From Raillietiella orientalis (taxonomy: Eukaryota), in the NCBI GenBank assembly GCA_036172245.1, contig JAYWIR010000055.1:434001-498000 (forward strand): 64,000 nucleotides of DNA. The letters run 5' to 3'. Under the pieces are notes generated by a model. The model saw only the letters and a list, made by a program, of their open reading frames with translations. It had not been told where the DNA came from and ran no database searches. The position numbers were made by a program, and so were the translations under genes. This document shows, in pieces, positions 7,442-63,200 of the stretch; the stretch's first letter is position 1, and each line of letters starts with the position of its first letter.

Positions 7442-8103
7442 CTGCAAGCAGAAACTGCGACGATAGATGGAAGCGTTCCCTGCTCTTACAACCATGTTGT
7501 CCACAAGCTGTGGCCGGTTCTTTCGGATCGTCTTCACCGCCTGGAACACGTCGACTTCCTCGTGCTGTATCACCTGCTCTATGCAAGCGTTCGCGGCGCA
7601 GTAAACGCCTGCTCGCGACCTCCCATCCCTAAATCAGAAAGCCACAATGGACCACATCCCCTCATCCGTCCTTTCGTACAGGGATACGACGACCACCGGT
7701 CCGTATCCAGTCTTCTGTCTCCACCTCTCGACCATGTTCATGAGCTCGACGAAGGAGTTGGTCGATGTCGGCACTTTGTGGCCGACAGGCCAGCAGGAAA
7801 GCTGGAAGAGTTGGCATGTCTTGCTCTCTGCTTTCACTCCGGCCATCAGCTCAGTCAGGGAGACGATCTGAAACATCGGTGACCGCGGCTGTCCTTCCGA
7901 AAGGCGGGCAAGGAGGCGGCGGATAAGCGAGGGTGGTGCAAGATCCGGACCCTTAGCCGAATCCCAGTCGCCTCGGATCGTCGAGGCGCTCTCGGTGGGA
8001 AGACGGCACCGTGGCAGAAGGCATCCGCAACGGCGCGCTTCGCGGCCCGTGGTTCACGGTGACGCGGAGGAGCAACCCGCTCGGTAGTGAAAGCTGCGCG
8101 TCT

Positions 8104-8134
<31 letters not shown>

Positions 8135-23100: not shown

Positions 23101-23174
23101 CTCGACATATTTACGGAAGTGCTGCAATTCAACAGGTTTGGTTGTTAAAGCTTCTACAACTTTATTCTCTTCAG
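7376..23174 (-). CDS. Ptp36E: Ptp36E-like protein tyrosine phosphatase with tandem D1+D2 PTP domains (15 core exons; N-terminal exon(s) lie further upstream)
   Basis: Exons in transcript order: 23059-23174, 22922-23009, 22600-22676, 17139-17273, 16877-17008, 14221-14375, 13355-13490, 13145-13294, 12786-12885, 11218-11294, 10657-10788, 8316-8441, 7680-7867, 7493-7628, 7376-7441. All GT-AG with matching phases, 1814 nt. Motifs PYDYNRVVL, DYINASYID, YIVTQGP, WRMVWQE, QYWP, FHYTEWPCH, HCSDGGGRSG, DYINAVFID, VDVFQAVK, EYKYCYD. The C-terminal IVSLTELMAGVKAE...KVPTSTNS matches remembered arthropod Ptp36E. Confidence 0.92.
7493..7628 (-). CDS. Ptp36E: Ptp36E-like exon (DGRSRAGVYC...QLVDNM)
   Basis: tag acceptor; tandem donors GTTGTAAG. 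Confidence 0.9.
7680..7867 (-). CDS. Ptp36E: Ptp36E-like exon (IVSLTELMAG...GPVVVVS)
   Basis: cag acceptor, gtacga donor; D2 WP loop. Confidence 0.92.
8316..8441 (-). CDS. Ptp36E: Ptp36E-like exon (QFPHFWP...FRIDKK)
   Basis: FWP motif; tag acceptor, gtgagt donor. Confidence 0.9.
8930..9260 (+). mobile_element. RTE-like LINE 3' relic
   Basis: Frameshifted remnants SREEVLQ, IDELFELAELRCT and ETPADCLLGR, resembling SNEEVLRR...QLRWxGHVxRMPxDRLPR. Confidence 0.35.
10657..10788 (-). CDS. Ptp36E: Ptp36E-like exon (GYTYPKEYIVTEWPL...VPAS)
   Basis: TISDFWSLVYD motif; tag acceptor, gtgagc donor. Confidence 0.92.
11218..11294 (-). CDS. Ptp36E: Ptp36E-like exon (PDNARPYL...DYINAVFID)
   Basis: DYINA motif; cag acceptor, gtgagt donor. 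Confidence 0.92.
12786..12885 (-). CDS. Ptp36E: Ptp36E-like exon (QISKLTPKF...NREKNRDVVTVP)
   Basis: D2 NxxKNR motif; cag acceptor, gtaag donor. Confidence 0.92.
13145..13294 (-). CDS. Ptp36E: Ptp36E-like exon (EQLRFVYE...QKEFE)
   Basis: End of D1 and interdomain linker; cag acceptor, gtagg donor. Confidence 0.92.
13355..13490 (-). CDS. Ptp36E: Ptp36E-like exon (SDGGGRSG...GAIENV)
   Basis: Completes HCSDGGGRSG; cag acceptor, gtgcgt donor. Confidence 0.92.
14221..14375 (-). CDS. Ptp36E: Ptp36E-like exon (ARRTILQFHYTEWPCH...PIVVHC)
   Basis: WPD-loop equivalent and start of the P-loop; cag acceptor, gtgcgt donor. Confidence 0.92.
16877..17008 (-). CDS. Ptp36E: Ptp36E-like exon (VMCSQYWP...MSKGN)
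   Basis: CxQYWP motif; tag acceptor, gtgagt donor. Confidence 0.92.
17139..17273 (-). CDS. Ptp36E: Ptp36E-like exon (SLIKPKAYIVTQGP...FDFIK)
   Basis: TQGP and WRMVWQE motifs; tag acceptor, gtaac donor. Confidence 0.92.
18084..18191 (-). pseudogene. Decayed intragenic duplicate of the PTP exon/intron/exon segment 13281-13406
   Basis: aacctcagctgctcctgcgacctggagacgcgcggtcgggtagg...gcacgcacccacgctatcgatcgcccccttcctggctgagaggaccctcg aligns with aatctcagctgctcctgcggcatggagacgcggtcaggtagg...gcacgcaccacgttctcgatggcccccttcctggccgagcggatcctcg. Translates as SARKGAIDSV...QEQLRF versus SARKGAIENV...QEQLRF. Confidence 0.85.
20050..20900 (-). mobile_element. RTE-like LINE reverse transcriptase relic
   Basis: SVRKGDAAALGAQDFVVAM (cf. 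GVRQGxxLSPxLFxxxM), then NHSWEDNPSVKK...KTVRW (cf. ISWxDRVSN...RLRW). Confidence 0.4.
22600..22676 (-). CDS. Ptp36E: Ptp36E-like exon (YDYNRVVL...DYINASYID)
   Basis: Canonical PTP motifs; cag acceptor, gtaagg donor. Confidence 0.92.
22922..23009 (-). CDS. Ptp36E: Ptp36E-like exon (NGCRVESH...KNQNSSIIP)
   Basis: cag acceptor, gtaagt donor; position of the KNRY-equivalent loop. Confidence 0.88.
23059..23174 (-). CDS. Ptp36E: Ptp36E-like exon (EENKVVEALTTKPVELQHF...KIEFR)
   Basis: aag acceptor, gtaagt donor, phase 1 to 0. Confidence 0.85.
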
Positions 23175-23487
23175 CTTTGAAATTCAAAATGCATGAGAAA
23201 ATTCGCCTGTACACTCGAATAATTATTGATGTTTCTCTTTACTAAAAGATGAAAGAATTTACAATTCCATGCGCAAATCCTTTAATCGCGGACAACCGAA
23301 CGCCACCGAGGCGCCGAAACTTCGGGACGTTCCTTCTGCGACATGGGGATCGACGTTTTCCCGACCTCATGAAGGAAGTTTCCGTTCGAAAAATGAAAAA
23401 CAAACCGGGAAAGAGCAACCAGTGGCACTCGGGACCACTGCCCAGTTGACCAGCAAGTGGAAGCAGTCGACAAGCCCTCCCCCACAC

Positions 23488-23540
23488 CTTCGAAGAAATA
23501 GAAAAGCTGTGAGTAATGCGCGCTGTAGGTCCAGTAAGAC
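23488..23540 (-). CDS. Possible 53-nt linker exon (SYWTYSAHYSQLFYFFE)
   Basis: cttgtcag acceptor and G|gtgtgg donor. Phase 2 to 1 would join the TM exon to exon 23059-23174 in frame. No homology support. Confidence 0.25.
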
Positions 23541-23627
23541 CTGACAAGAGTCTACGTAGCCTCATACGTCAAGGTCGCAGTGACATGACTGAAAAGGACG
23601 TTTCTTCAAAAAAAAGACGTCGAGCTA

Positions 23628-24717
23628 TTGGCTGGGGCGCATAAGGAAGAAGGGCGCACGCACAGGGGCAGCATCTCTCAACCCTCAAGACAGGGTGACG
23701 AAGGCAGGGGAAGGGGGATGGAAGGGGGTGCGAATCGCGGCTTCGGCAACTCCCTCGAGACAGAACGCCAGGCCGCACGCAAGCGCAACAGCACGGGACG
23801 ATGGTCACCGACTCTTCCGACCCACCCCCCGGCGCCGACCGACGCGCGCCGCCACACCAACCACGAAGACGCGCGTCCTCCCCACGCACCTCACCGCAAG
23901 CTACCCTCCTGCCCCCCTCCCCCTTCCGCGACAGCCACCTCGGACAGTCCAGCGCACTTGCGCGCCGGACGCTTCCGCCGCCCATCCTGGCGATCCGTCC
24001 CAGGCGATCGCCTGACCCGACCCGCCCAGCCAGCACGCACGTCCACTTTGCCCGCTTCCGGCTAGCAGGGACGAGAGTGGGCTTCCCACCGTCTGCTAAG
24101 GGTGGGGGACAACGGCGATGCCGTTCGGCTTTGCTGCTTCCCTCTGCGCACCCGTCCGAGACCCCCGCAGGAGCGGCCGTAACGGGGGCGCACTGAGCCC
24201 GTTGAGGAGGCCGCTCCGGCTTGTCCCCGCACAGCCCACGCCCCGGCAGCCGCGGCCCCGCTTGCCAAGCGATCGTCGGCACGCGACGGGCCCCAAAGCC
24301 CGGACACCAACGCGCACCTTTGCTCCCTGGCTGCCGACGCCGCCCGAGCGCCAACGACGCACCAGCACTTCGCGCTTCCGCAGGCTCGCCAACCGACCGA
24401 CCCGCCGCCGCCCGGCTCCGACGTGGCAGAGACGCGGACGACGCCGCTCCGGAAGGAAGCGCGCACTGCTTTGGGTGGCTGCCGCCGCGAGCGCCCACCC
24501 TTCCCGCCTGCTCCCCTTTCCGACGCCCGCCCCTCGCAACGCTCCCTCCCCATCCTCCGTTCGCCCGGAATCCGCCCGCCCCCTCCTCGGGAGGGGTCGC
24601 GCCGCGCCCGTCGGGATCGACCGGAATGGCGCCGCTCGGCCAGCCAGCTGCCTTGGGTTGCACCGGGAAGGCAGGGGAACCCGGGAAGACGAGGCGAGGC
24701 GGGGCAGCCGCCGGCGC
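23628..24717. repeat. Interspersed 1.09-kb very GC-rich repeat, copy 1
   Basis: Direct repeat of 43785-44874 (offset 20157). ORF-track translations of both copies are identical through the core; only two mismatches seen, near the ends. Confidence 0.95.
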
Positions 24718-24799
24718 GGGTCAGCTCCTGCCGGACGGCGATGGCGTCAACCTCCTGGACGAAGAACTTTTTCCGTATTCAGGCTGTTGTTTGTTTTTT

Positions 24800-25480
24800 T
24801 CTTTTCCTCTTTTTTTTGTTGAGTACCGAAGCAAATCTCTTAGTTATCATTGTCCTGCAACTGAAGAAACTTTCCCGGAAGATTGTGTTGAAAGATTTGT
24901 TTATGCAGCCAACATGCTAAGGCGATCAAGGGCTTCCAGTGGCTTCTTTGTCCATCCGAGTTGCTGCTTCTTGCTGTCTCCCGGATACAGGGGTGGTTCT
25001 TTTCGTGAAGTGCTTTGAGAAATGCTCGGCGTGGTTTTGTTAACGACATCCTGCGACTCATGCCTTTGGTTGCCAGGTGCCTGATGTGCTCCCATTAGGA
25101 GCCTCAGCGGGTTTCCTTCTCCGATGAGACACCAAATTCTCAAGGCCCGATTTCTTGATTCCTTTGAGCTCCACTTGTTCGTTCGTCTACGTGTGACTCC
25201 TGACAAGGGAAAGTGGATGGCTTGCTAAGAAAGAGTCCCAGATGAAGAAGAGCCTGAAGTCATAATCTTGGTCTTGTGACCACGCTAGTCTGCGCTTGGT
25301 TGCCCGGAGCATGTCCGGACTGTGCTGGACACCATTAGCTTGCTGAGCTCGCTCGTGCACCTTCTTGGAATTTCCAGCTCTTTCAGGGCACAGTCGTTTA
25401 AGGTGTCTCAGGATTCCGACGAGCCCTTCTCTTTTTTCGCGTGCCTTCTTCAAGGGTTGCTGACGCTCTCTCGAATAGGC
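24800..25480 (-). mobile_element. I/jockey-like LINE RT relic with A-rich tail
   Basis: SKKVHERAQQANGVQH, SGVTRRRTNKWSSKESRNRALR (cf. LGVTLDRKLTWxxHIxxxRNKA) and LRLLMGA (cf. LRxITGA). A-rich 3' end at ~24790-24820. Confidence 0.4.
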
Positions 25481-25789
25481 ATTATGGAAGTGAACCACGC
25501 GTGGACTGCGAAGAGGCCGCCAGTGCTTTCCTCCTACTTCTCCCAGTAGGGGAGAGGGAATGCCGCCGCCCCGAAAGGTGTGGTGGAGAGCGCGCTCAGC
25601 TCCGCAGAACTCCAAGGGATTGAAGTGGATGGAAAGCGCATTGTCCCAACCAATTATAAGTTCCCGGAATCCGCCACTAAGGTATGTCCGATGGATGTTT
25701 CATCCAACGGTGACGCCAATTACTCAAGTGCCGCTCTCGATTTTTTAGAGAATTCATATAAACAGAGTTCTCAAGACGAGGAAGAATAA

Positions 25790-26250
25790 ATAGATCGAGG
25801 AAATCAATGATCTTGGGGATGAGATCACGTTTCAGGGTCTTGACGGTGGTCTCTAGTAGCGTGCTGGCATCACTACGAGCCCTAGAAAGTGTTGAAGGAA
25901 GGGGATCACGTCGACCCAGATGAGTGTTGGGAAGAAACGTGCCAGTGCTCGTGAAGGCACGTTCCTGCGATGGAAAGGTGCCAGTGTCGATGAATGACGC
26001 TGGCGACGTCAAATAGTAGGCGGCACCTGTGGGCAGGACGCAGTGCAAGTGGACACGGACGGAGCCGTGGCGCATCGGCAGATGGAGGAGTTAACCCGTT
26101 GACCCCTAGCAGGGATCAGATAGGCATGTTCGCAGTAGCTGCTGTTGTTGTTCGCCAACAGAGAATATTAGGTTTCCTGGACCATGCACCAGTGATCGGC
26201 AGCTCCGGAAAGGCTGCCTGCCAAACCCCGCAGCTTACAACGTGAGCGTT
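25790..26250 (-). mobile_element. CR1/L2-like LINE 3' end relic
   Basis: Ends in TTVKTLKRDLIPKIIDFLD, resembling the RTxRxKNSFIPxAIRLLN ORF2 terminus. Confidence 0.3.
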
Positions 26251-26479
26251 TTCAGGGAAGTAGGCGAAAGGGCAGTGCCTGGTAGTTTTATCGGGATCAG
26301 GCTGCTCCCATTCCCGTAGGGAAGAGAGGGCACCTTCGAGGGTGGGGGACGATCCCGGTTCTAGAAAGGACGGAATGGGATGGGAGGAGATCCTCTCTGA
26401 GGAACGGGAACGAGGTCCTTAGTGACTACCTTGAATGTGTCTTCCGAACAGCATTCTTGAAACCGAACCCACGCCTGCC

Positions 26480-27200
26480 TGCTCTGTGAGAGAGTCCTCC
26501 GCAGCTATCAGACGGTTTTGCTCTTCTTCCTTCGAACCGAAACGCTCTTCCCTGAGTCCGGATGGGCGATCATTCCTCGCCTTAGGTTCATGTCCCCTGT
26601 GTTTGGCCCACTTGTGTGGGGCCGTCTTCTGAAATTTGAAACTGAAGCAGTTGGTTCCCATCTTTCGCCTGGTCTAATAGTAGTTGCTATTATTAATTCT
26701 TCGCTGTTTTCATCTGTTTTTTTTGCTTTGTTTTGTTTTGAGAGAGCGCCGTGCTAAAATTTATCGCAGAAGCGTTTGCTCGGAAAATCAGGACGTACCC
26801 CCATCCAAATCCTTGTCTTCTGTACGCCTATGCGTACAGAAGACATGCAAAAAGGCTAAATGGAAAAAATCGGAACAGATCCACCATGATATTTTTCATT
26901 TACTTGCTGACGCGGATGTCGATGGACCACGATGACTGACCGAAGACTATTTCTCCCTCAGTCCTTCATGGAGAGAGAGGCAAAAGTCCTTCTGTGCAAT
27001 CGCAACGTCCGAGTGAGGACACCGGAAGCACCGGTCGAGGTGCTCACGGGCGCACAACCGTAAATGCCTCGTCCGAATGTGGAGCACAGGCGCCATCGCC
27101 GCCCTTGTACTTTTGCTTGTACCTTTTCTGGTTCTTGCTGGCACGGGTGCTTCCTCCTGCACACTCTTCGCGCTGCCTCTCACACTGCAATAGAGTCCCA
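26480..27200 (-). mobile_element. RTE-like LINE relic
   Basis: LFACLLYAYRRTEDKDLD...FSEQTLLR*IL (cf. PVLLYGCETWTLTK...FERKILRRI) and KWAKHRGHEPKARNDR (cf. RWAGHVxRxxxDR). Shares nucleotide similarity with 28335-28450. Confidence 0.45.
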
Positions 27201-28099
27201 TTTTTCACCTTGCCCTCGCCAGATCTTTAACTTATAAGCAGACAGCATCCTAAGCGATGGACCCAAAGCAAAGTACTAAATCATCCAGTTGAAATGCAGA
27301 TTCCGATGCCATTTAATTTATGTCTCACAAAATCTAAGGAACAGTAGGGCGGCCCCTCCAACGATCGCTTGACGCGATCCTGACGTCTACCGAAAAGTCA
27401 TCAAAGTCGGCTGGCAGAACCGTCTTTTCGTAGCAACGCGCAACATTTGGAAGAAGACGTTAGCTTCGAGGTTCTTCTTTATCTGTAGCTTTCCTGATCA
27501 GTTTTCCGCGTGGAAGAAACCGGGAAAGATATCTCTGAGTTCCTCGTTGAGACGCTTCGCAGAAATGAGCGACTTTGCAGGATCATGCGCTGGTTGCCTC
27601 TAAGCTGGGGGCAAAAGTCAGCTGCGATTGCAACGGTAGAATTTCGAGCCAGCTACTCGTGCTGGCCACGTGTTGGAACACAGAGGCCCTGGGTTTCGGA
27701 AAGCAATCAGAAGCGTTCCAAGAGGGGGCAGGAAAAACAAACAAGCAAACAAACGCAGTGAGAAAAACCTGCGCTCGAGGCCAGAGTCAGCCCCTCGGTC
27801 TAGGTCTCGGGCACCTTTCCGCGTTATGACAAAATTCTTCCCGCCACCTCGACTGGAGACACAAAAAGGTTTCGCAGTTTTGTGGAATCCGGTGGTTTGA
27901 TTCGTCTGGCGTACTTCTTGTGTGTGCGAAGTTCCGAACTCATCAGCACCAGAGAGATGCTGAACTGACTGGAGACGTGGTTTCCTTAATAAGATTGCTA
28001 AACCTTTGAACACGGCAACCGCGTTCGAAACATCGCCTTACTACAGAGCACAAGCAGACGCAGTGGTTGCGGGGAGCGTCAGCTCTTGCCACCTCCTGC

Positions 28100-28640
28100 T
28101 GGTCAGTGTCCCACATGCCCCGAGGTCAGCAGAGTGCGCAGGAGGAAGGGAAGCGTGGCGGCTCGAGCATCTGGAAGTCTGCGACTCGCACGTCGAAGGA
28201 ACCGTTCGTCTCGTGCGCAACGGACCCCGCAGGCCGCCAACGAGGTTGGGGTTGGGGAAAGTCGTTTCCAGGAATGCCGACCCCGTGCTGTGTGGTGTGT
28301 GAAGCGTGGAAGGAGTGACCGCGACGCCCTAGTCAGGACCCGGTCGAGGTGCGCGCGAGTGGGAAGGGCGGTGGGTACAGGCGCCCTAGAGCTGTGGAGA
28401 CGGTGGACTTCTCCATCGCCGTCCTCGTACTTTTGCGCCATTTCCCTTTTCGACACTTTCGAAGGCACAGATGCCGGCAGGACGTTTCACTGGAAGAATC
28501 GCCTCGCGAATACCTCCCTGCGCCCAACTGTCGCGCAAGCGACATCAACGCCGACGATGCTCGGGATGCCAAAACCGGAAGAGGCTACATCTCGCCCCGG
28601 GGAGCGTGCGCCCACAGTTATCCACAAGAGCCTTAGTTTC
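28100..28640 (-). mobile_element. RTE-like LINE relic related to 26480-27200
   Basis: ccatcgccgtcctcgtacttttgc versus ccatcgccgcccttgtacttttgc, and ccggtcgaggtgc shared with the ~27.0-27.1 kb copy. Confidence 0.35.
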
Positions 28641-30519
28641 CCATCCGTGTGATCCTGCCGCAGGGCAGCACCGTGCAAACGTTACTCGACAGTACTGAAA
28701 TGCCCGTGCTGTTCGCAGGAACGTCGAGTGCGAAAAGTTTTTCACAACAGATAGGAATGGGCCTTCGCACCATTACTTCGAACGTGCTGATAACTCACCA
28801 ACCTGAAACAGACTGCAAGGATGAAATTTCCCAGATCATTTGGAGAATTCTGCGCTCCGGCTTCCAGGCGCGTCCGGCGTTTGCTTGCCGTGGTGAGCCC
28901 CGTGAATGATTGAGGCGGGGCTAAAGTGCAGCACGTGCGTCATGCGCGTCTCAGCATCATTCATCTCAAGACTTATGAGCGGCAATTCCTGGATCGCACG
29001 AAAGTCATACGCTGCGCCAGTCAGGAACGCTCTCTCTCTCTCGATGCCTGGATCATCCCGGCAGGGAAGAAAAGGCGAGTAGGGAGGACGTCGCCACGGA
29101 GGTGCTCCGTGCGTGAACCGGGAGCACCAAGATGTGGGCTTCGGAGAAGCCATCGAGTGCAAGCAGCAGCACGTGACATCAGCGTTTGCTTTTCCACACA
29201 AACGGCGCACAAATAGCTCCATTCTCTCTGCCGAACCGAATCCTCGGACAGAGCGAGCATTACCATGCACTTGAACCTTATTCTTCTTCTGCTTCCGAAG
29301 TGCACTTCCGGTTCCCGCATGATAAACGCGTCAGTGCCACTTTTCCAGGCTGGACTCCCCTCCCGGATCCAGCCCATGCGCGCAAGGCGACTGGGAACTC
29401 GGTGGTTGGTTAGGCAAGCTGGAGCATCCGGAAGAATACCCTTCGCGGTGATGACGAATCATTTATGATGATGTATGTCGATCCTTGATTGCTTCATTGT
29501 GGCGTACGTGACCCGTGTGATTGGCATCAGCTGACATCGGAATCATTTTATATTTTATAAGGTGTCATTTTGGACGGCAGTCATTTTTTCGAGCAGCGGG
29601 TTTCCTGAGTCCAGGGAGAAAGTCCAACTCCTATTCTGGTCTTCTTACACCTTTGCCAGCGCGCTTCAAAAAGAAGTTTTTGCATGCCTCCAGCAGGAAT
29701 GAGATGGAAGACAACCGAGCTTTCTTCCTTAGCAGGGCAGCACGTTCCCACCGCTTCGTCGTCATGGCAACTCTGTTCCGTCGCCGTGGAAGGAAAAGAC
29801 TTTCGAAATCGCTCATGCGACCGCTCCAAAGCATTCCGCCTGCCTGTTGTTGCTCTGGATGGGCAGCTTTAGAGGGAACCTGCAGCAGGACGAGTTCTGA
29901 ACCGGCGAACGTCCCAACCCTGGGAGTGCTTCCCCCTTCCTGATCGCAGATCCCACCGTTTCGTCATCCCCACAAACGGGGCCGTGCTTGGTTGCATGTC
30001 GCCTGAGTATCCGTTGTAAGGGCCTGTGAATTTTGTCTCGGCCACGGGCGGTTCCAAAGTTCCGAAGAAGATTCAAACGTCCGTCTCGAACTCGGATTTG
30101 GTGAAAGCAGGAAGAGCGAAGGTGGTGATGGCGAAGGAAGAAGGCACGAGACACCGTAACGAAGCGAGGCATTCGGCTTTTCCCGATAGGAACATCATGG
30201 GAAACCCAACGGGACGGACGACCTCCCTTCGAAGAAGCGGCGGCGCCGCCGTGCGATCTCTGGAGACGAGTGGTTAGGGCGCTCCGGATGCAGCAGCCAC
30301 TCGCGCTGACGGAAAGAGAAGCTCGTCGGAAGCCCGCAGCGTCACTACGAGCATTTTCATCCTATTTTGTTTTTGTTTTCCGGCGGATCGTAGGATCCCC
30401 CGTTCCCCCCTCCCCCCCACTCGGGAAATCTGGTTCTGGACGAAGTTGCGCACATGTTCCCATCGTCAGGACGAGGGGCAGCCCACCCTTTGCTGAAGCA
30501 CGTGTTTTCCGAGTTGCCA

Positions 30520-31130
30520 AAAAGAATCGAATGACTTCCGAATGGAGTGCGAAAGGAATTTCAAGATGTGGACTCGGTCCTGTGTTTCCCAGGAACGAGA
30601 TGCAGCAGCATCTTCCGGCAAGCGTGGCGGAGTCAGATGCGCGCACCAGGAGGATCACAAGAAAGGTGATCCGTCCCGGTGGAAGGTGGAAAGCAGCAAG
30701 TGGACTCCTGGATCCGACAGCAAGATTTTTCCCAGATTTCCCAGCGGCGTCCCGGATCTCTTTGGGTCTCGCGCGCGAGCGCTTGAAGCCCTCGTCCCGA
30801 TGGCTCGGTGTCCCCCGACGCGAAGTCCCTAACGCATTACGGGAGAGCGCCAACGCACGTCCGACGGGGGAAAGATCTCGAGTGAAGCACAGGGACTCTG
30901 CGCGGGGCTCCGCGGCAGGAACGGATGGTTTAAAAAAAGAGCGTGCCCTCACCGGGCCGTGGGAACGCACAAGAGTCTGTCTTTTTCGGGCTTCCCCCAG
31001 TGATCTCCCGTGATGAACAGCGCATGCCGCGGGCGAATGGTGCGAATGTTCTCGCAGTGCACGTGGAGTCTCACTCTTTGGACGCATTTCACAGTGCAAG
31101 GCAAGCGCTCCGTCGCTGCCTCCGTATCTC
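30520..31130 (-). mobile_element. hAT (SPIN/GTF2IRD2-like) transposase relic
   Basis: ACAVHHGRSL (HCIIHQEAL), VRARS+LNH (IRARxLNHRQF), SHRDEGFKRSRARPKEIRDAAGKSGK (LSRGKVLKRFFELRKEIxxFxEKKGK) and ITFLVILL (LAFLVD), in colinear order. Confidence 0.5.
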
Positions 31131-31859
31131 AAGGAGCCTCGGAACGAAACAAATCAAAGTACCCTCAGCATGCGATTACAAAGAGTCATCTATTTATAAC
31201 TGCTTTCCTTCCAGTCTGGTTTGCGCCTCCCGGTGCTCATCCTCTGTGTACACTCAAAGAGATCTAAAAAAAAAAAAAAAAAAAGACATCCACGCTCTTC
31301 GGCGCAAATCGAGGATGGCAATGGCAGATCCCATTCGGAACAGCCGTTCCTCCCTGACGGAAGTCGAGGAAAGAAAGTACCGGACGCAGAGGAAGGAAGA
31401 AAAAAAGCTCAGTTGGAACGCGAAGACGACCCGGAGGACCGAGAGGAGAGCGTTCGTAGGAGATGGAAAGGATGAGCTGGAGATCAGCCTGCCGTCTTTT
31501 TCCTTTGCCATCTGAATCATCCAATCGTCCTGAACGTTTCCTTCTTGCCCTCGGGGCTGGAGAGCTTTCAGGCGGAAGAGAGATGCCGCTGGCGAGCGCG
31601 TCCCGCCCTCCTCCCTTCCTAAAGCGCACGGAAGCCAGAAGTGAAAAGAAAAACGACCTCCGGAGCGATTCCAAAACACGCCCCCAAGTCAAGAAGCCTC
31701 GATCCAGGAGAAAAGGACAAAGAATTTCGTGCTGCTTGCGTACTGAAAGGAATATTCCTTCTGGCTGTCTTCAACTGGAAACGCATCCGCTGACGGAGGA
31801 GCTCTTTGACTTTATCGAATGCTCGCACCGCATACGGTAGCGATTCCTCCGCGACTTTG

Positions 31860-32300
31860 GAAGCGGACCAAAAAACGACGGGTTGTTGAGTCTTTGATTA
31901 AGGACCGACTCCGGGAGGCTGGAGAGGACGCGGCTAGGAGCTGGGAAAACGATCGAGCCTGCGAGCCGATTCTGTCACTCCTGGCCGCGAGTTTTATTCC
32001 GCATCTCTCCTCGGAGATCGCCGCATCTTCTCCGGCAGCGGGACGGCGAGGGACTCGTTCCAGGCCTGATCAGCCCTTGCGGCTGGACCCTTTTGCCGGA
32101 CGCGGGAAAGAGCTCCGGTCCGACCCGGAAGGGTCCGCGCTGCTTTCCCGCCCTCCCTCGCTCCTCCGTGCGTTCCAAGAAGCAAAAGCGAAAATCCTCC
32201 GCCGTGCCAACTCCTGGCTGCTAACGAACGGTGCCACCACAGAACGGATGACGTCACTCAACGGAAATCGGTTGCGGAGAGTTGCGAGGGGCGCAGCCCA
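31860..32300 (+). mobile_element. hAT (Charlie/ZBED5-like) transposase relic
   Basis: VVESLIKDRL (IGETLIKP), EPILS (IPLS), DPFAGRGKELRSDPEGSALL (PFAIQLDESTDxxGxAQLL) and LLTNGATTE (LxTxTTGE). Confidence 0.4.
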
Positions 32301-32972
32301 CGGAGCGCACTTTCGCGCTCCGCGTGATTGATGCCTTCATCCCGCTATCGGCACACGATGCGACAGGGAGCACCAGGGGAACACTTCGAGCACTTCCGGG
32401 AGGATCCCCGCGACTCTCCTCCTTTCGGCAGACACGATCCACACCGCCTGCACCTTGCCCTCGGATTCCCGGGTCCCGCAGCGGCGGATGCGATCCATCT
32501 GCACCGCACGGGGTCCACATCCCCCAGGAATTTCACACCCGTGGATGCGCCGCGCGTCTTCCGGTTTTCCATCCGGAGAGTGTATCTACCCGTCGATTCG
32601 AGAGGCTATTCTAGGATGCGTAAAATTCCCACCCCCGTGGGGGGACTCGTAAAAATAAACCGCGGAGGGAAGAATCAACGTCCGACTCCCGAGCGCCTGA
32701 CAACTTATCCCGCAGCGTCGTCAAGAAGACGGCGAAGCCCCCGTCGCCGAGGCGGCATCCCTGCGAGCGGAACGGGCGGATCGGGAAGGGCATCGGCCAC
32801 CCCGGGGCAACCGAGCCGTGCGGAAATCCCGTTGCTGCGAACGCAGCCTCCCCGTTCCAGGATGCACGGGGGGAGGTCCGAGCGCCGTCATTTCGTTTAC
32901 GAGCACGCGGGGCATGCGCGGAGGGGGGAGGGGGGACCCTTCCTTCAACCTGGATGGGAATTCGAATCCCCC

Positions 32973-32998
32973 CCACCACCACCACCACCACCACCACC
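32973..32998. repeat. (CCA)n microsatellite
   Basis: ccaccaccaccaccaccaccaccacc. Confidence 0.9.
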
Positions 32999-33439
32999 GC
33001 CCCCTTCCCGAGGCCCCGTTTCCGGTTCCTGAAAACAGTGCAGTCCAGGTGATGCAGCAAGCAGCAAATCCGTGCACTTTTAAAATGGGTTCACGTGCGC
33101 GCGTGGTACACATGCGTGTAGGCATGTGCACGTCAGTATGACACCCAGTGAAGTGGCATGCCTTCACGCGCAGAAGACTTTCTATGAGGAGCACATGCAC
33201 AAAAATATCACACACACGCGCGCGCGCGCGCGTGGATCTACGCATACGAGGAGGACGCGTGGGGGGGGGGGGCGTAGGCATATACTGTTTCCATTATCAT
33301 GTTCATGCACGCACACTCCAGGTACGCAGGAGGAAAAAAAAAAAGGGGGGGGGGGAAAGGAAGAAGAATTATGGGAAACCTAAACACGTGTGCAGCGGGG
33401 ATGGGTTTTTCCAGAAGCCATGAACGAGAAGAAGCTTAC

Positions 33440-33608
33440 CTAACGACTGGGGAAGGAGACCACTGTTGATCATGGACAGCTGTATTCTTCCCGGCAGGGC
33501 TGCCAGCGTTTCGCCAGCAAGGTCGAGATACACGTTGTCATGACTCGTGATTTCGGACTGATTGCCAATTTTCTTCGAACGGTGCCGGCGTGTGCGTCGT
33601 TTATGCAT
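33440..33608 (-). CDS. Candidate alternative first coding exon of the PTP gene (MHKRRTRRHRSKK...SMINSGLLPQSL)
   Basis: Strong G|gtaagc donor in phase 1, matching the acceptor phase at 23174. Open frame from the ATG at 33608; would give a 660-aa protein. Lies in an AT-richer island with GA-rich tracts and a TCAGT initiator-like motif (~33943-33947, minus strand). Confidence 0.55.
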
Positions 33609-35749
33609 GTGATGTGTGCCCGGTTCACAAGTCACAGAGGGGATTTCACCGAACAGCGTTCCAGCATCGTCACCATGGCAAAGGAGCGCACCTTCCGCCG
33701 CACTTTCGGTTTTGCAAGCTTCCGAGTGGTTTATTTTGGCTTAACGTTCGCAAAAAAGGAAAGCAAACACACACACACGGCTTTTTCCTTCATGACGTAC
33801 CTATTTGTTCAGATCGCAGTTTTGCCGAGTGCAAACAGGATGCGAATCTTGGAATTTTTACAGAATCTTATCTTTCTTTCCTCTCCCTCCCTCTCTCGCT
33901 CTCTCTCTTTCAGTATGCTACCAATCCTCGATCCGTAGGCTGACTGAAGCCATTGAAATATTTTCCTCCATTACAAATGCGCCGCAAAAGTGTAGTGCCG
34001 AATGTATTTTTAGATGCGTGTTGCGTGTACAGTCGAACCCTGCCGCCGCGAGACTGAGGGCCTCAAAATGAGTGCGCTCAATTTTTGACTCCCGAAACCG
34101 AACCGGGAAAGTGCAAGGCGTGGACCGCCCTTCCTGCTTGCAAGGGCGCCTCCGAGGTCTCCGGACCGATCCTCGCTCGCGGCCCTCCGCTAGGAGGCGG
34201 CGACCCTCCGCCGCTCCTCTGCCCCTCACGCCCGCGAGAGGAAGAATGCTGAAGACTTTTGCTGCTCTTCATCTCCGAGTCTTCCTCCCTCCCCTTTTGC
34301 AGGTGTGGGGCTCAACCCGCCCGGCCCTACGCTTTCTTTACAATGTTTACGAGTGCAAGCAGCAGCAGCGGCGAAAAAGGAAGAAGAGAAAAGAGGAAGG
34401 AAAGCAGTGCCTCCCCCTTTTGGGGGCGTCCCTCGCACCCGAACGCCTCGGCGCGACAAACACTTTGCAAGCAAAAAAAGCAGGAAGGATCGCAAAAGTG
34501 CCTTACCATCAGATGCGTGATTCACCGTTTGATGGGAATGGGATGATTTCCTTCTTTGGCTAATGAGAGGAGAAAGGAAAAAAAAATCTGAGTCATTCGC
34601 AAATGAGATCATCAGTCTTCATTCGAATCTCTCACGCACATCTTCCCGGTGGGGAGGACTCCATGGAATCGCGCTGCGCCGGGGACGTCCACCGCGTGAG
34701 GTCGGAATGCGGTGGCACCCCTGTACGGCAGCCATCACTTCCGGGAGCAAAGGGTTAAGCGCCGCATGTTCGCGAGCCGCCGTCATATTCCGTTACCGAG
34801 ATGCGCGTTTCGCAGCAACGGAAGCGAAAGCTCCGGGGGAGCGAAAGCGAGGCGTGCAAGATGAGACCGACCTCATCCGAACGGGGGGGAGGGAACGCTT
34901 CCGGCGTTTCCCCGAGCAACGGCGCCGCAACAATGGAACCGGTCGCTCGGGCCGGACGTGCAGGGCGGCCGCGCCGGAAGAGCCTCGCCGAGGCGTGCTT
35001 CCCGTTGCCAGTATCACAACTGCATCTGCCGTTTAAATGCTCCCGCAATTCCGCAGGCGAGCGTTCACGGAAACTCCGCGATTCATTTCACAAGGATGAT
35101 TCGGCGCTGCGGAAGAAGAAAGTGGCGATGCCGAGATTTCATTCATATGATCCAAGTGTGCACATCAAGCGACATGCTACGCATCATGCTTGGTGTTGGT
35201 CGTAAAGCTTACAATTGGCGGGAAAAACGAGAAGGAATTTCTTTGGCCAAATTGCTCGATTTAAGCGGAGGAAAAGCAAAAAAGGAAAAATCATTATCGA
35301 GCGTCGCAGATGATGTATTCATTTTTTTGAATAATCGTTTGTTTGCTTTCATTTTGCTTCGTGAAATGAAATCAGGACTTGGACACGCTGATCAAGGAGG
35401 GAAGCCAAGTGCTCGCACGCAGCGGGTGCTGCTCCGTTCCTTCAGAGCAGTGCCTTTGCAGCGACGGGCAACGAGACGACGTCTGAAGCGAACCAAAGGT
35501 CTTCTTGACCGACTTGGCTTCTCGCACATTCCCTTTTTTTCAGTTCCGTTAGGAGGAATCGCTTTGGTCAGCAGCCACGGCCCATTTCTTTCTTTCTTTC
35601 TTTCCCCCTCGTTTTGCTTGGAAGTTGTGCGCTCGACTTATTGATAGGCGGCTGTCGGCCGCGATATAAAAGAAGCTTGGAGAGGCGGTTCAGGTAGGTT
35701 CTCTTTGCGAAGAGACTGCTCCGGAGTCCCGCACAAGGTGGTCGATATA

Positions 35750-55955: not shown

Positions 55956-56141
55956 ACTGGCAACCACCCCCCATTATATACCTTATCGCATTAATAATCG
56001 TTCTAATGTTATGCTTCCTTGGTCGTCCCATTACCCCTTGCGCAACACGTGGCTCCAAAAGTGCCCATTCCTTATCACTTTACCTCCTATTTTTTTACCT
56101 CATTGTACTCTCTTTTCCTCATTTCTTTTCAAGAGAGGTTC
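55956..56141 (-). mobile_element. IS5-family insertion sequence, left end and truncated transposase N-terminus
   Basis: SDKEWALLEPRVAQGVMGRPRKHNIRTIINAIRYIMGGGCQ matches the IS5 N-terminal pattern (SDxEWxxxEP...GRPR...INAIxYxxRxGCQW). Truncated at the expected W, with in-frame stops upstream. Putative IR start GAACCTCTCTTGAAAAG follows TAA. Confidence 0.8.
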
Positions 56142-56347
56142 TTAAACGACTTATAAGCGCGTTTGAGCTTCTATAGGTAAAAAGCCTTTTATTTAAATTC
56201 TATACAGACATACGGTGCACACAGTACGAAAAATGGAACATCAGACTTCAAATGCGCTGATTTTTTTTGTCGTTTGATCTGCACAGACCGAAGACAAATC
56301 ATAGCTTCGATACTATGATGATGGGGTTGAAAGAATTTGTCAAGTGG
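56142..56347. repeat. Wolbachia-type intergenic repeat element
   Basis: ttataagcgcgtttgagctt...agacatacggtgcac...tctgcacaga...tttgtcaagt resembles a dispersed non-coding repeat I recall from Wolbachia genomes. Recollection only; needs BLASTN. Confidence 0.55.
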
Positions 56348-56596
56348 TATTTGTGATATTTGATAACTCCTCCTTTGATGGTATTTTTCTCATACTTTAT
56401 CATACCATTACATTCCGGGGCCGTGCGAATTTCTGTATGATTTGTTAATGCAGTTGACAATCAAGAAATATTGTACACAATTTCTATATCCATATTTAGG
56501 AACTGAGCATAATCTCGCCAAATAAATGTGTCTTGTAGGCGAGTTAGTATACGGTTCATGTATTGTGTTATTGGTATAATATATCTTGGGTATCCT

Positions 56597-56674
56597 ATGG
56601 AAGGTGTTAGTGCGTCAGGTGGTGTTAGTTATCGAGTTGTTATAAGCGAAGAAACTGTGGAAAGAATGGGATGA
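56597..56674 (+). pseudogene. Truncated 5' end of a bacterial hypothetical gene ([25 protein letters not shown])
   Basis: ATG preceded by a TATAAT box (56575-56580). The frame stops just before the junction with the dnaJ fragment. VSYRVVISE resembles a remembered Wolbachia hypothetical protein N-terminus. Confidence 0.4.
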
Positions 56675-56681
56675 TTTGAAT

Positions 56682-57111
56682 TTTGCATTTGTAACGTAAT
56701 GTAAAGGCGCTCGCATTCCTTCAAATGCGTCTTCGAAGTCAATTTCGAGATCATAACGCAAGTCCGCCCCGGGCACTCCCCTCGGTGTGCTTTCCATCTA
56801 CTCGATCCCCCGAATCCTCCGCCAAAAAAGTCATTCAATACGTCAGTAAAATCTCCCGCAGCCTGGCTAAAATCAAATCCACCAAAACCACCACCTCCAC
56901 GTCCGTAACCATCACAACCTGCCTTTTTCTCGGCATCAGACGGAACTTCGTACGCAGCCGTTGCTTCTTTGAATTTTTCCTCTGCTTCTCTATCACCGGG
57001 ATTTCTATCTGCATGATACTTTAACGCTAATTTCTTATATGCTTTTTTTATCTCATCACCACGAGCGTTTCTGCCTCCTTCCAGCAGTTCGTAGCACTCT
57101 TTTGTGCTCAT
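56682..57111 (-). pseudogene. dnaJ: Bacterial dnaJ pseudogene fragment (J-domain, G/F-rich linker, start of C-terminal domain), Wolbachia-like
   Basis: [56 protein letters not shown]...DFFGGGFGG, frameshift at ~56800, then [33 protein letters not shown]. The essential HPD is mutated to HAD; truncated before the zinc finger; no introns. Confidence 0.9.
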
Positions 57112-60100
57112 ATACAATCGTTCGGTATTTAACCTTTAAAATAGGTATTTCACAATTTCAAGTGCGGCCTCTGTTTTCTGTGTGGACTAAAAACCCAGTC
57201 AGCCCGGAAGAAGTGCCTGTCCGTCCCCAAGAAGGGAGGCAGTCACCCCCAGTCGAAAATGACCCCGACCACCACTACCGCCCGCACTCCCTTCCTCAGG
57301 AAAGCCAAGAGTGGGGGGCGCATCCCGGCGCTAACAGATGGGGAGCCACCTCCCCACGGAAGCCGAGAGCAGCGTGCCCGTGCATCGCCTTCTCCCATCA
57401 CCCAACTCAGAGGGAGACCCTCATGGGTGATCCCCCGTGACGGCCCTTTCGGTTCCCTCCTCTCTGGACGAGACCGCCGGCGAAAAAAGCCAAGGCGCTG
57501 CTGGGTGGATCTCCTCCCCCCTCCCCCCCGAAGTAGCAGCGTAGAAGACAAAAAGGCGTGAATCTCTGGGGAGCCTTCGAGACCACCCCAAAGGGAGGCA
57601 TCGGACCGACCCCCACCAGCCAACGGGTTCATGGGAGCACCCGGAAAAAAACCTTCCTGCTCCGAAGAGCGCGTAACCACAGGAACGGGAGCTCCCCTGC
57701 CCCACCACCCCTGATGGTCCGAAGAGCGACACTCCCGTCCCTATCGGAGGACCAGGTTCCTCCTCCAGGTCCAGCTCCAGGAGAAGACAGAAGTCGGAAA
57801 TCACTTCATCTTGGACGTGACAGATGCCCTCGCCGCGATCAAAGTCGACGGTTGGTCAGCGCGGAAGGGGCAATAGGGAAGGAATGTCTGGGTGGACACA
57901 ACCCAGGAGCCCGGGGCGCCCCAAAGGCGGGAACGAAGGAACCGCGCTCCTGCGGTCCTAGTCTGCGATCCCTCAGTCCCATTCGCTCGGGAGATCCCAT
58001 GAAGTGTCCCGCAGGTCGTCGGGACGCGCAGCCCGAAGGCGCGAATGCCTGTCACGGGCTAGCTGACAGTAGGTCAGCGTTTCCAGAGGAGGGTCGGGGG
58101 CACGGCGAACACTCGGGAGGCTCCCTGTCCCGAGGGGGCATGCCGTAACACGGTGGCTGCCTTTCCGGGAAGAGATCCCCAGCAGCGTGCGGCTGGAGCG
58201 AGGTTTCCAATGGCGACCGCTTTGCGATCGTCGAGGACTCCGGGGATGGGCGAGTTGGACGGGGGAGCCGGGGCGCACGTCTGGCGGCGGCGCGTAGCAA
58301 CGGAACCCGGCGGTCTTTGCTGGAGGAGAAGAAGAGGGTCCTTGGAGCTCCAGGGATCCGACGACCACGGGAGAGCGCCCGAACAGCCCGGATCGAAAAG
58401 CAGGGAGGTGAGTTGGAATGCTGGGACGGAGCAGCTCCGGAGCGCAGGGAAGGCCCGAGAAGGGAGCTCCTGAGGTGTCCCTCTCGGTGCGGCCCCGCGA
58501 CCTGTCTTCCATCTTCGGTGGGAGGTGGTCGTCCAGCGCGCCACGCGCTTCGGGCTGGTGGCTGCCCCGTCCGAAAAGACGAGATGGCGCTCGCGCGGCG
58601 GCTTCGTGGGCTGAGCCCGAGGCAGGGACAGCCGCCTCGGTTGCGAGTGACCTCGCCGGCTGCGCCCCGCATGCCCTCGGAGAAAGCAGTCGCCCACGGG
58701 CCTTTGGTTGAAGGGGCAGGGCCAGCACGAAGCGGGTGGACGCCGTCCTTGGAGCGGAGGCGATTGCCCCTTTCCGCCGCAGCGGGCAGGGCGAGGCGGA
58801 GTGGGGCCGCCCTCCGGCAAGCGTCGACACCGGCACCTTCGCTGCAGAAGAGGGAGAGCTCGTCCGGCGCGGTTCCTCCGGTGGACCCTAGACGGGACAA
58901 AAGTCGCGCGTTTGCTTCTCGGTCGCCAGGGACAACTCCTGCCCTCTCCCTCACTCTTCCACCCGCTGGATGTAGTCCCAGGAGGAAATCCGAAAGAGGT
59001 CCTGTGTCGCTCGAGGAGGAAGCGGGCGGACAGAGCGTCGCGGTTAGGGGAGCAGAGTGGACGAGAGGGTAGCTAGCTCACTTCCTCTTCCTCGTAGTGG
59101 AGCCGGCGCTCCAGAGGGAGCCAGGCTTGGACCCTCGGAGCCCTTCTGAGAACCCAAGGAGGTGTGGGGAGAACAGTCTGTGGCGACCTTCCTCGCAATC
59201 GCGAAAAGCCACGGTCGACTGGGGAGATGCAGTCTGCTCGGTCCGCACAATACGTAATCTTCAGGTCATGGAGGGCGAAGGATAAACGTGACGCTGCGAC
59301 GCGGCATCATTCATCTTCTCACCTCCCGGTAAAAGAAAGTCAGCACTTCAGCTGAGGAATTGTCCGCTCCCTTCTGGAGTGGCGGGACCAAGTCATCTCC
59401 CGGTCCAACGAACTGACTGCACAGGGGTGGTTGTTGCTGCCCACCTGGCGGCAGTGTCCCCTTCTGCAGCACCTTCCGGGAAGTCCCATCGGCTACACGC
59501 GACCCAGTAGAAGCAGAACACCCTCCGAATAGAAGGTTCCCCCTTCCTCTTTCAGGACGATGGCTGCTTCCAGAGGAGGCGCCCCCATCCTCTCTGTCTT
59601 GGCCAGCGGACAGCCAGATTTTTTCGAGCGGTACCCGGCGGGAGGCGCACGAACCTGTCCGCGGGCACCGGGTCTCAAGAATTGGCGGTGGGTCGTTCAT
59701 TCGATGCTCTGACAGCCTCGGTCGCCGAGTCGCAGAGTACCCCGCCCGACGTTTGCCCCGAGGGCAGATGAGGTGGGACCGCAGGCCGAGCGCGCGGGAA
59801 AAGGGCTGCCTCCCTTTCGCACTGCCGACCTTCGAAGAAGGAAGAAGAGGAGGCACGCGTTGCGCGGCGGCGCCTACGTCGTCGACCGGACGTGCTTTCG
59901 TGCAAATTACTCTTCCTTCGATCCCCGGGGCACAACCGACGAATTCGGAGAAGCAGCGTTGGGGGCCGCTGCACCCCCCGCCCCAGTTCCCTCTGCGTTC
60001 TCGGGCGCGGCTTCCTCAGGCGTGTCTCCCTGGCACAGGCAGGGCGGTTCGCGTACTCGTTCGGAACACCTACACGCGAGTCCCCAGCGGCGCTTCGAGT

Positions 60101-60129: not shown

Positions 60130-60247
60130 CACATCCCTGTCAGGTACTTGTAGCTGACGTATCCTAGTAGCGTGACCGTGACCAGGACCAGTGCCAGCCA
60201 GGTCCACATGGACTCGCTGATGCTGCAGCAGCCGTCGAGGTGATCAT
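60130..60247 (-). CDS. Exon encoding a transmembrane/signal-anchor helix (MWTWLALVLVTVTLLGYVSYKYLTGM), probably an N-terminal exon of the PTP gene
   Basis: ctag acceptor at 60247, TG|gtaaag donor at 60130, ATG at 60209. Hydrophobic helix followed by YKY. Resembles my recollection of membrane-anchored N-termini of insect Ptp36E isoforms (MWxxxVxxxSxxGYxxYxFL). Confidence 0.6.
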
Positions 60248-63200
60248 CTAGAATGCCAACCACTGAGTTGAAGGACAACGTGGCGCGGATCTCCAACTCC
60301 AAAGCCAGCCCACGGGTCCGGGACGCCACCGAGCAGCGCGAAAATTCGCCGGAAGATGTCCCGCCACCGAGTTTCCGAGAGATGCGAGGAATGGGAGCAG
60401 CTCCCAGGGAGGTACCATTCCTTGGAGTAAGAGGACCAAGCGGTCCAGACTCCGTTTCGTTCCAGGAAGGGCAACCGAAATGCGCGCAGGTATTTGACCT
60501 CAACAGGTCCATCTCGGTAAGAGGGACGTGACGCGGAGCAGGGGCACGGTCTGCCTGGCAGCCTAGCAGACAGTCGCGCTCCCGAGGGGAAGAAACAGGG
60601 GAGAAGAGAAGAGGGGATGGAGGGGGGGGGGGGAGGGGAGGGAAGCAGACGACAGGGGTTCCTTCTCCCCTGCTTCCTGGAACGAATACGCTAATCCCCG
60701 GGCTCGAAGCAATGAGCACGTTCACGGAGGCCGGACCTCGCTTGGCACGCCAGCGGGGCGGGCAGGGCCGCAGGAGAGGGGCACGACGATGGCCGGACGA
60801 AGGGGGCAGCGAGGCAGTTGCGTCACGCGCCCCAGGCATCGCTCCGCAATCAGGGAAAAATCGTGCGGGATCCCCCCTGCGCCAACTTGAGAAACGGTCG
60901 GTCTCCACGGAACAACCTCGCCCTGCAGCTCGGCCAGCAGGCTTCTCACCACACGAGGTTTGAGGGGGCAGCGCATGGCCCGCCCAGCCTATGGTGGGAG
61001 GAAGGGGAAGGCTGGAGGAGCCGGAAGGAGAACACGGGGGGGGGGGGAAGAGGGTGCCAGGAGACAGATCTGCGCCTGTATAAACACCTGGCGTTTGCAC
61101 CGGTCCGTCGTCCCTGCTTGGCGCCGTAAGCAGCACGTGTGACCTTGCGCCATATTGTAGTGTAGCGTTCTTCCCAGTGAAACCTTGGCTCGTCCTAGGG
61201 TCCCCTTCTTCCCCTTCCCATGTTGCTTGGAAGGGCGAGGGGCACCGAGCACGGCGCGAGCCACTGCCCGAGACGGGAATATAAAGTTCAGCACTCACAA
61301 GTCGGGTCTTCCAGGTCCTCCAACGAAGCCCTCCTCCGCGGGACCCGCCCGCGCAACGGACAGTGGCGGATCCTCTTCCCGGAGGAGAGGCTGTCTCGAG
61401 TTCTGGGAGGCCTCCGCTCCAGCGCAGCTTCCAGGAGGAGTGACCTGGGTGTCGTCGTCACCCCCTTCCATGCGCCGCCGCAGGAAGGCTCCCCTGCTTG
61501 CCGCGGGAGGCGAATCGGGCTGGCAGATGGCGGTCCCCCTACCCACCCCCGGAGCTGCCAGATTGCGCGGGCGTTTCTTCCCCCCACCCCTTTGAGAGGG
61601 AATGCGCGCGCAGCCGCCCCACCTGCTGTTCCGTTGGAGCCCGCGACGGGCAGCTGGAGGCGATCCCGCTGGAGCTGGGCAGCGGCGACGTCCTTCCTCC
61701 GAGCGTGGGGCCCTTCGGGCTTGGCGATGTCGGCGTTCCGGCCCTTCGCCCTCCTGCTGTGCTTCTTCCTGTGGCCCATGCGGCCGCCCCTAGGAGGGCA
61801 CACGAGAAGGGGATAACGACGCTGGGTCGAGGACCTCCGGGTCGAGGACTAGCGTCCGCCCCCACACATCGCAAGTCCCTCGCACCAACCCAGACTTACC
61901 CTCCGCTGGTTCTGCCACGTGTCCTTGCCCCATCCACCCACCCCTGTATCCGGGGGTCGGAGGGCCCTCCCATCGGGGGCGGCTGACCCAGCGGGGCCCT
62001 CCCACTCCGATCCCAAGCCGCACCCCGAGCGCTGGCAGTCCGGCTGGCCCCCTCGACCCCGGACTTACGGTGGGACGCAGCTGCTGGTGCCGCCGCCGCC
62101 GCCGCCGCACCCTGGCGCCTTTGCGCCACCCATCCCGCTCCGGGAAGCCACCGCGCCCACGTTACCCCGCGGTTCCCAGCGGTGCGGGGCGTGTCCGACC
62201 GCTGCGGAGCGCCGGCGTCGACTCGACCCCCCCCCCTTCCGGTGTGGAGCAGCGACGCTCTCCCTCCGCCCACCTTCCGCCCGTAGGAAGAGCGGGGCCG
62301 CCGCCGCATGCATCCCGGAGGAACGCAGACTCCCCGAAAGGGGGATGAAGAGGAAGGAAGCGGGGATCCTCCCACGCGCTCCGCCGCCTCCGCTCGGGAC
62401 TTCCGCTTCCAGCAGGACTCGCGGGCGCCGGGCGCGAGCGGAGGGGGGGATGGGCAAAGAGAAGGTTGCCTGCACGGGGAAGACGAAAAAGAGACCACGC
62501 GCGCTCCCCCTCTCCCCCTCCGACCGTCGCCGGAAGACCACCCCTGGGCGCGAATCTCACAGCGGTGGCGGCCGGCACCGCCCCGCCTCGGAGCGGTGAC
62601 GTCACACGCAGTGCTGCTCCCCCGCAGCCGCCGTCGACAGCGCCTGCATCCGCCAACGCGGTGGAAGACGGGCGCCTGGCCGCCGCCCGCCTTCCACTGC
62701 GCGCCTGCTGGGAACGCGCCGACTCCCCTTGCAACCCACGGAGAGAAGAATGGGCGCTCCCACCAGCTCTCTTCGGGCAGCCAGCGGAGCAGTGCAGGCC
62801 CTCGAATGTCCAGCCCCCATCCCCACATGATACCCCTCGTTCCCTTTTTTTTCATTTCGACAGAGTCCACGTTCGCAGCTTCTGCATTCGCGAGCTCCTC
62901 TCAGAGCGAGTCGTCCTGGAAACGCCCCTCTCACGGCACGGGAACCCGAACCGTGCTTCTTCCCTTCCTCCTCCTCCTCCCTCTTTCTTTCCTCCTCTCT
63001 CTCCTGGCCGTTGGGTTCCGAAAGTGCAGGTGGAACAGCCGCACGTGACGTGGCGTGAGAGCCGGGTCGGTCCACCCCGGAAGGCCCTGCCTCCACGGGC
63101 GGAAAGTCGGACGACGAATCGGGTCAGCGATGCACCCCACAGTGGCAACGCGCCCATCTGGGGCGGGCCACAGAGTCGCTTTCCCCGCTCTTCCGCTCCC

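Follow-up and report, generated by a model that had tools for sequence, protein, structure and literature searches.

The stretch of DNA analyzed here (hereafter the window) spans 64,000 nucleotides, positions 434001-498000 of contig C55 in a 210-Mb host assembly of 491 contigs. At 55956..57194 it contains a nuclear Wolbachia transfer (nuwt), a 1239-bp insert with no single strand that lies between single-copy, GC-rich host flanks. We read this insert as a non-functional genomic fossil, formed when two bacterial fragments were captured in an infected and most likely pentastomid lineage, and place the probability of this reading at roughly 0.8.

A block of Wolbachia DNA embedded in a host chromosome

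A preliminary description of the window, made from its letters alone, had pointed to an abruptly bounded AT-rich block of Wolbachia origin. The block is indeed sharply set off, its GC content being 40.4% where the adjoining kilobases on the two sides have 65.5% and 63.8%, and Wolbachia sequences match the insert far beyond chance (matches in 60 of 60 Wolbachia genomes, best E 2e-172). Its proposed left edge at 55956 is correct, but the proposed right edge at 57165 falls short: Wolbachia homology continues for another 29 bases to 57194, ending a few bases before the tRNA-Arg gene of donor-clade genomes. Five pieces, here lettered A to E from left to right, cover the whole insert with no unexplained gap.

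The insert lies in the middle of a 950-kb contig that also carries a spliced arthropod gene, and each of its flanks, when searched against the host assembly, matched itself alone. On the evidence of the assembly, the insert is thus embedded in host nuclear DNA. These searches accordingly revealed no empty site, and the flanks contain no other Wolbachia remnant. A degenerate 14-base direct repeat at the junctions (11 of 14 positions), a level attained by 27 of 2000 random pairs, was considered as a target-site duplication but set aside for being 2-3 bases out of register.

The dnaJ piece identifies a supergroup F donor

Piece E, at the right end of the insert, derives from a bacterial dnaJ locus read on the minus strand. 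Its coding part (56680..57111, minus strand) is a pseudogene fragment that spans the J domain and G/F region and breaks off where the zinc finger begins, and its non-coding part (57112..57194, minus strand) is Wolbachia DNA from between tRNA-Arg and dnaJ, two loci that were adjacent in both of the two supergroup F genomes checked. The intronless 5′ part of dnaJ that had been noted earlier is recovered by Pfam (DnaJ, E 7.7e-19). The frameshift, which is a 7-base deletion at 56785/56786, and the change of the HPD motif to HAD at 57012 are likewise present. A eukaryotic or organellar DnaJ origin was rejected, with no such sequence among 75 protein matches.

The best 12 DnaJ protein matches consist of 10 named Wolbachia proteins and two unnamed ones, led by the Wolbachia of Penenirmus and Mansonella. 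Among the best 30 of 60 genomes, the seven closest are 85-88% identical to the aligned dnaJ piece, versus 79-82% for genomes outside their clade. In the dnaJ tree the insert joins a nine-genome clade (support 99/93) as its sister on a long branch, and in the dnaJ protein tree this clade includes the named proteins from the Wolbachia of Penenirmus, Mansonella and Menacanthus (support 98/96). These three Wolbachia belong to supergroup F (PMC12693587). Pieces B and D likewise match F-clade genomes.

Together, these matches indicate that the donor was a supergroup F Wolbachia and that all 1239 bases derive from it, with the gene-tree placement being that of a single gene. The dnaJ phylogeny that the preliminary description had proposed for placing the donor accordingly returns supergroup F. 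Weighing against a simple assignment, the insert is sister to the sampled F genomes and not nested among them, possibly an artefact of its long branch.

Neutral decay and drift towards host base composition

Changes in the dnaJ piece were polarized at 483 sites where at least six of seven F genomes agree. The insert carries 52 private changes at these sites. The 46 coding changes among them are spread over the codon positions as 14/16/16 and comprise 34 nonsynonymous and 12 synonymous changes (expected nonsynonymous share 0.71, p 0.75); control Wolbachia branches over the seven F genomes show 31 synonymous and 25 nonsynonymous changes. The dnaJ piece has been released from selection and is decaying neutrally.

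This decay has a direction. Changes from A/T to G/C affected 39 of 306 sites, versus 5 of 177 for the reverse (p 1e-4); the corresponding counts on the seven F branches are 32 and 31. Piece E now stands at 44.5% GC, compared with 36.9% for its counterpart in Wolbachia genome G040. The skew exceeds that of six other polarized inserts pooled (35:5 versus 69:38, p 0.008). Across the seven polarized inserts, for which two of nine pieces were dropped because they had too few orthologues, skew correlates with local host GC content (rho 0.75, p 0.05), a relationship that weakens to p 0.31 when the present insert is left out. The idea that skew follows local host GC is suggestive only. Transfers of known ancestral state can serve as neutral probes of regional substitution bias in the host.

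Neutral decay and drift towards host GC argue against a mis-join with DNA of a live symbiont, and other features of the assembly bear on the same question. Wolbachia probes of 2.4 and 5 kb gave 10 and 21 short, scattered matches at 65-98% identity on many contigs, and neither probe had a complete match anywhere in the host assembly. A search of the assembly for bacterial 16S found none, with all three small-subunit rRNA matches being eukaryotic in a search that used a stricter first look. Within the insert, a 261-base contig from public sequencing run X1 is identical to 56203-56463 and bridges the B|C and C|D joins; its depth of 2.7 is similar to that of adjoining host pieces (2.6 and 3). Run X1 covers 8 of 30 bins of the stretch and may come from the source sample, so that it is not necessarily independent. 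It contains no contigs of live Wolbachia, a blank that carries no weight at such coverage.

A chimeric assembly that drew in DNA from a live symbiont, or from infected prey or an intermediate host, would be consistent with one result that counts against our reading: in X1, at this coverage, no read or contig crosses either host junction. We nevertheless regard a chimera as extremely improbable. In a live symbiont, dnaJ would keep its reading frame and its HPD motif and would show neither neutral decay nor GC drift; the insert has unique flanks and lies well inside its contig; and the other Wolbachia fragments differ in divergence and are spread over many contigs. The proposal of an old, integrated and dead transfer is upheld by the neutral decay, the drift towards host GC, the single-copy flanks and the lack of bacterial 16S in the assembly.

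Mobile-element ends upstream of a rare Wolbachia gene

Piece A (55956..56141, minus strand) comes from an IS5-family element, of which it retains the left end with the first ~40 codons of the transposase, interrupted within the transposase gene at the host junction. Pfam searches of 13 open reading frames (ORFs) gave meaningful matches in two, DnaJ and this IS4/5 transposase N-terminus. The latter matches DUF4096 (E 4.8e-8) at 33.6 bits, slightly below the 34.3 cut-off, which an intact relative in Wolbachia genome G002 passes. An IS5-type transposase start had been claimed for this position: the transposase piece is present, but its own start codon is deleted. Assignment to IS5 draws on the transposase N-terminus and on an element terminus followed by TTA, which fits the TNA target rule of IS5. 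Piece A is 73-74% identical to dozens of insertion-sequence copies in G002 and 86% identical to a complete IS5 copy on host contig C47.

Piece B (56142..56344, minus strand) starts with the TTA that borders the IS5 end and is part of a dispersed, non-coding Wolbachia repeat, as the preliminary description had recognized in outline. It has at least 40 matches in each of five F-clade genomes out of five, at no more than 82% identity, and carries a decayed promoter-like end (TTGACA, a 17-bp spacer and a -10 element). In G002 the same IS5 lies in or next to repeat B at several sites. A collection of 50,697 phage records contained a 94-base match to repeat B in one record, a WO phage. Rfam searches of repeat B and of the insert yielded nothing meaningful (one weak chance match). 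The repeat, which has a sigma70-like promoter at one end and belongs to no Rfam family, also occurs at seven further places in the host.

Piece C (about 56345..56427, minus strand) had been overlooked in the earlier inventory of pieces, which was incomplete in this respect. It preserves the left end of an rve-type insertion sequence, including the opening few codons of the transposase, and stops exactly at the element terminus. It is 83-85% identical to Wolbachia copies that encode, just downstream, an rve transposase of ~317 aa; the element may be IS481-like.

Piece D (56428..56679, plus strand) accounts for the truncated plus-strand ORF reported in the block. It comprises the upstream region and the broken, truncated start (fewer than 30 codons) of a Wolbachia MavL-family macrodomain gene, and is 76% identical, with gaps, to contig C36 of Wolbachia genome G037. 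The G037 protein matches PF24754 (MavL) over residues 1-325 of 325 (E 1.8e-105), and a protein atlas agrees; this family membership applies to the G037 protein, the window having the broken start alone. A mavL-like gene body was found in one of the 60 Wolbachia genomes, where it is intact (G037:C36), and a second, longer mavL-like copy lies on host contig C47. The host pieces of the gene imply that the lost donor carried this rare gene. In total, the host holds two broken mavL-like pieces, along with the region of an upstream neighbor (C38:1002617-1002984).

The copies on C47 lie in a 2.8-kb Wolbachia block (C47:1254423-1257201). It includes the complete IS5, with its left end set against host-like DNA at a TTA, followed by more Wolbachia-like DNA, a 1.1-kb broken mavL-like gene (87% identical to G037) and a second IS5 left end. 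This block lacks an A/T-to-G/C skew relative to G037 (49:51, unpolarized) although its flanks are GC-rich. Transposition of IS5 inside the host genome was considered but is not supported: the 12 matches are mostly internal fragments, and an element end against host-like DNA occurs on C47 only.

Two fragments, probably captured together

The joins between pieces suggest how the mosaic arose. The A|B join consists exactly of the IS5 terminus plus TTA, and the C|D join falls exactly on the terminus of the piece C element. Because these two joins sit on insertion-sequence termini, they were probably made in the bacterium, and the insert likely represents two fragments, not five. D|E joins two genes mid-frame and in opposite orientation with no clear microhomology, and for this reason was most likely made at or after insertion.

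We propose that, in the germ line of an infected ancestor, a chromosome break took up two bacterial fragments, which end-joining repair then ligated. The first, A-B-C-D (724 bp), would have consisted of mobile-element ends already stacked in the bacterial genome ahead of the mavL-like gene; the second, E (515 bp), would have brought dnaJ and been joined mid-gene. Judged from these junctions, the mosaic was probably built largely in the bacterium by its own mobile elements. Two results weigh against a single A-D fragment, which we infer from the joins: the order A-B-C-D was found in none of the Wolbachia genomes examined, and B|C does not fall at a clean terminus of piece C.

The missing A-B-C-D order, together with the finding that G037 DNA upstream of D differs, would also suit a patchwork of five shards, in which each piece came from a separate Wolbachia locus and was stitched to the others during repair in the host. 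We consider such a patchwork unlikely, as two of the four internal joins lie on element termini, A|B with its TTA target, which random shearing would rarely reach, and as the association of IS5 with repeat B recurs in G002. The D|E join might alternatively have arisen if a single, longer and contiguous Wolbachia segment went in and host deletions or inversions shortened it afterwards. Several small deletions in the insert show that deletion has been at work. The mavL-like gene and dnaJ of G037, however, lie on different contigs (C36 and C115) with different neighbors, and the flanks are free of further Wolbachia remnants; later shortening is therefore very unlikely, and we retain capture of two fragments as the preferred reading.

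Mitochondrial and ribosomal markers point to a pentastomid host

Tongue worms (pentastomids) are parasitic crustaceans of vertebrate airways. Several markers in the assembly suggest that the host is very probably one of them, namely cytochrome c oxidase subunit I (COI), ND5, mitochondrial composition and gene order, and 18S primer sites. Contig C282 carries an intact COI for which Armillifer armillatus, A. agkistrodontis and Linguatula arctica rank 1, 2 and 4 among the 120 matches listed, with 75-77% identity to these three pentastomids versus at most 74% for the other 117. The COI tree groups the host with pentastomids (support 100/99), and 18 of 26 decided diagnostic columns fall on the pentastomid side, with eight more in a third state. 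The best ND5 match among 1.84 billion representatives is Linguatula serrata, at 307 bits versus 269 for the next; 10 of 150 ND5 matches were looked up, and eight of those 10 are named.

The mitochondrial contig, which is partial, has 64.5% A+T and a GC skew of -0.62, within published pentastomid values (PMC12202648). It has trnL2 after cox1 and trnD after cox2, with no trnK between cox2 and trnD, the same trnL2/trnD arrangement as Armillifer (criteria from PMC12202648, PMC1590035 and PMC10355681); a trnL2 placed between cox1 and cox2 is a mark of Pancrustacea. Both Pent629 primers (PMC3204775) match the host 18S exactly and give a 430-bp product, the size given in PMC4982189. Old nuclear copies of mitochondrial DNA (numts), at 79% and 94% identity, occur in large nuclear contigs and tie the mitochondrion to them; one copy is flanked by GC-rich DNA resembling that of the window.

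Other observations count against this identification. The COI tree came with a warning of long-branch attraction and held no other crustaceans, and a single compositional skew affects both mitochondrial genes. The tRNA cluster otherwise differs from that of Armillifer, with trnK not seen between trnR and trnN: trnR and trnK are predicted to be adjacent after nad3, trnN lies elsewhere and trnQ, for which a pentastomid position would be between trnC and trnY, is not reliably called, short mitochondrial tRNAs being predicted poorly. The Pent629 match concerns primer sites and product size only. The nuclear phosphatase described below weakly favors a barnacle over Hemiptera (354 versus 318-337 identities).

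The long-branch warning, the dissimilar tRNA order and a COI identity to pentastomids of only 75-77% would fit a genuine nuwt in some other long-branched arthropod, such as a branchiuran or another crustacean, with pentastomid-like skewed mitochondrial DNA. This is quite unlikely, given that no branchiuran appears among the 120 COI matches listed or the eight named ND5 matches looked up, that the ND5 margin is 38 bits and that the 18S amplicon size fits a pentastomid. If the host is, as we favor, a pentastomid crustacean, the insert would record a heritable supergroup F infection of its lineage.

Some further features of the mitochondrial sequences emerged. C282 and C285 are two near-identical partial mitochondrial contigs (99.5-99.8%), in which an insert of ~490 bases with a partial trnL2 repeat lies between trnL2 and cox2, trnC-trnY-trnW precede cox1, and nad3 follows a reshuffled tRNA cluster. 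COX1 matches occur at 54 places in the assembly, making numts abundant.

Position relative to a host phosphatase gene

The window also encodes a host dual-domain protein tyrosine phosphatase (7370..33620, minus strand), with exons mapped by homology (Pfam Y_phosphatase, and tblastn with arthropod relatives) at ~7.4-23.2 kb and an alternative first exon at ~33450-33620. Three phosphatase exons were the sole matches in a Pfam scan of 147 long ORFs of the window.

The preliminary description had judged the insert to lie probably within an intron of this gene. The homology-mapped exons stop at 33.6 kb, well short of the insert, but a candidate upstream exon would extend the gene past it. This transmembrane-coding candidate (60130..60398, minus strand) is stop-free and phase-compatible on paper: its phase-2 donor (on the 60129 side) fits the AG at 23207, with the reading frame preserved. 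Such a splice would put the insert in a 36.9-kb intron. Two phosphatase relatives have a hydrophobic N-terminal segment, and the candidate encodes a segment of this kind; pairwise BLAST of the candidate against related isoforms was not significant (E 32 and 0.16), and the protein atlas had no match to it. On the strength of this candidate exon, a position within a phosphatase intron is plausible and somewhat favored. An ORF of 160 codons at 61299-61779 of the window (minus strand), with a basic N-terminus and a strong phase-1 donor that fits the acceptor at 23175, is possibly another alternative first exon of the phosphatase, without homology support.

The gene lies in a distinct compositional domain. 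GC content is ~33% over window positions 1-6400, then 55-70% for ~79 kb, then 32-47% (from C55 position ~519000), and the boundary near 6.4 kb coincides with the 3′ end of the phosphatase gene. A stretch of intron near 22.6-23.5 kb is AT-richer.

Significance and comparison with known transfers

As an object the insert is ordinary, nuwts being common, and it has no function now; its value is that of a record, made notable by the probable host. We found no report of Wolbachia in pentastomids in the literature searched, a body of work outside which most subscription journals lie, and absence from print is not established. On balance we lean slightly towards the combined proposition that a pentastomid lineage underwent a past heritable supergroup F infection, which left fragments of many ages, and that such an infection is absent from print. 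Whether a supergroup F symbiont still lives in the pentastomid lineage is doubtful. By analogy with bed bugs, a living strain could possibly support the nutrition of a parasite that feeds on blood.

Should the host be a pentastomid, the known host range of Wolbachia would come to include a subclass whose members are obligate endoparasites of vertebrates, in some cases of humans, and the insert would be one more example bearing on how supergroup F passes between insects, nematodes and other parasites. Cockroaches, through which some pentastomids pass (PMC4982189), carry supergroup F (PMC10118093). A live and needed symbiont in pentastomids would pose the question of treatment that filarial worms already pose.

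Supergroup F Wolbachia are described from bed bugs, lice, termites, cockroaches and Mansonella (PMC4824920, PMC10118093, PMC12693587), and the insert dnaJ groups with this clade. None of the sampled F strains is the exact donor (best identity 88%), and a pentastomid is not among the hosts given in the excerpts of these three papers.

The closest known counterparts of the insert are the nuwts of filarial nematodes and Dictyocaulus viviparus (PMC12693587), which, like it, are short, neutrally decaying nuclear fragments from a supergroup F donor, with no live symbiont in the assembly. The lungworm Dictyocaulus provides the nearest parallel, as it too is an airway parasite that carries F-derived fossils and has no known infection (PMC12693587). 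Compared with the nematode nuwts as portrayed there, the present case differs in that the host is an arthropod, probably a pentastomid, and in that the insert drifts strongly to G/C. It also keeps bacterial insertion-sequence junctions and part of a gene found in one of 60 Wolbachia genomes.

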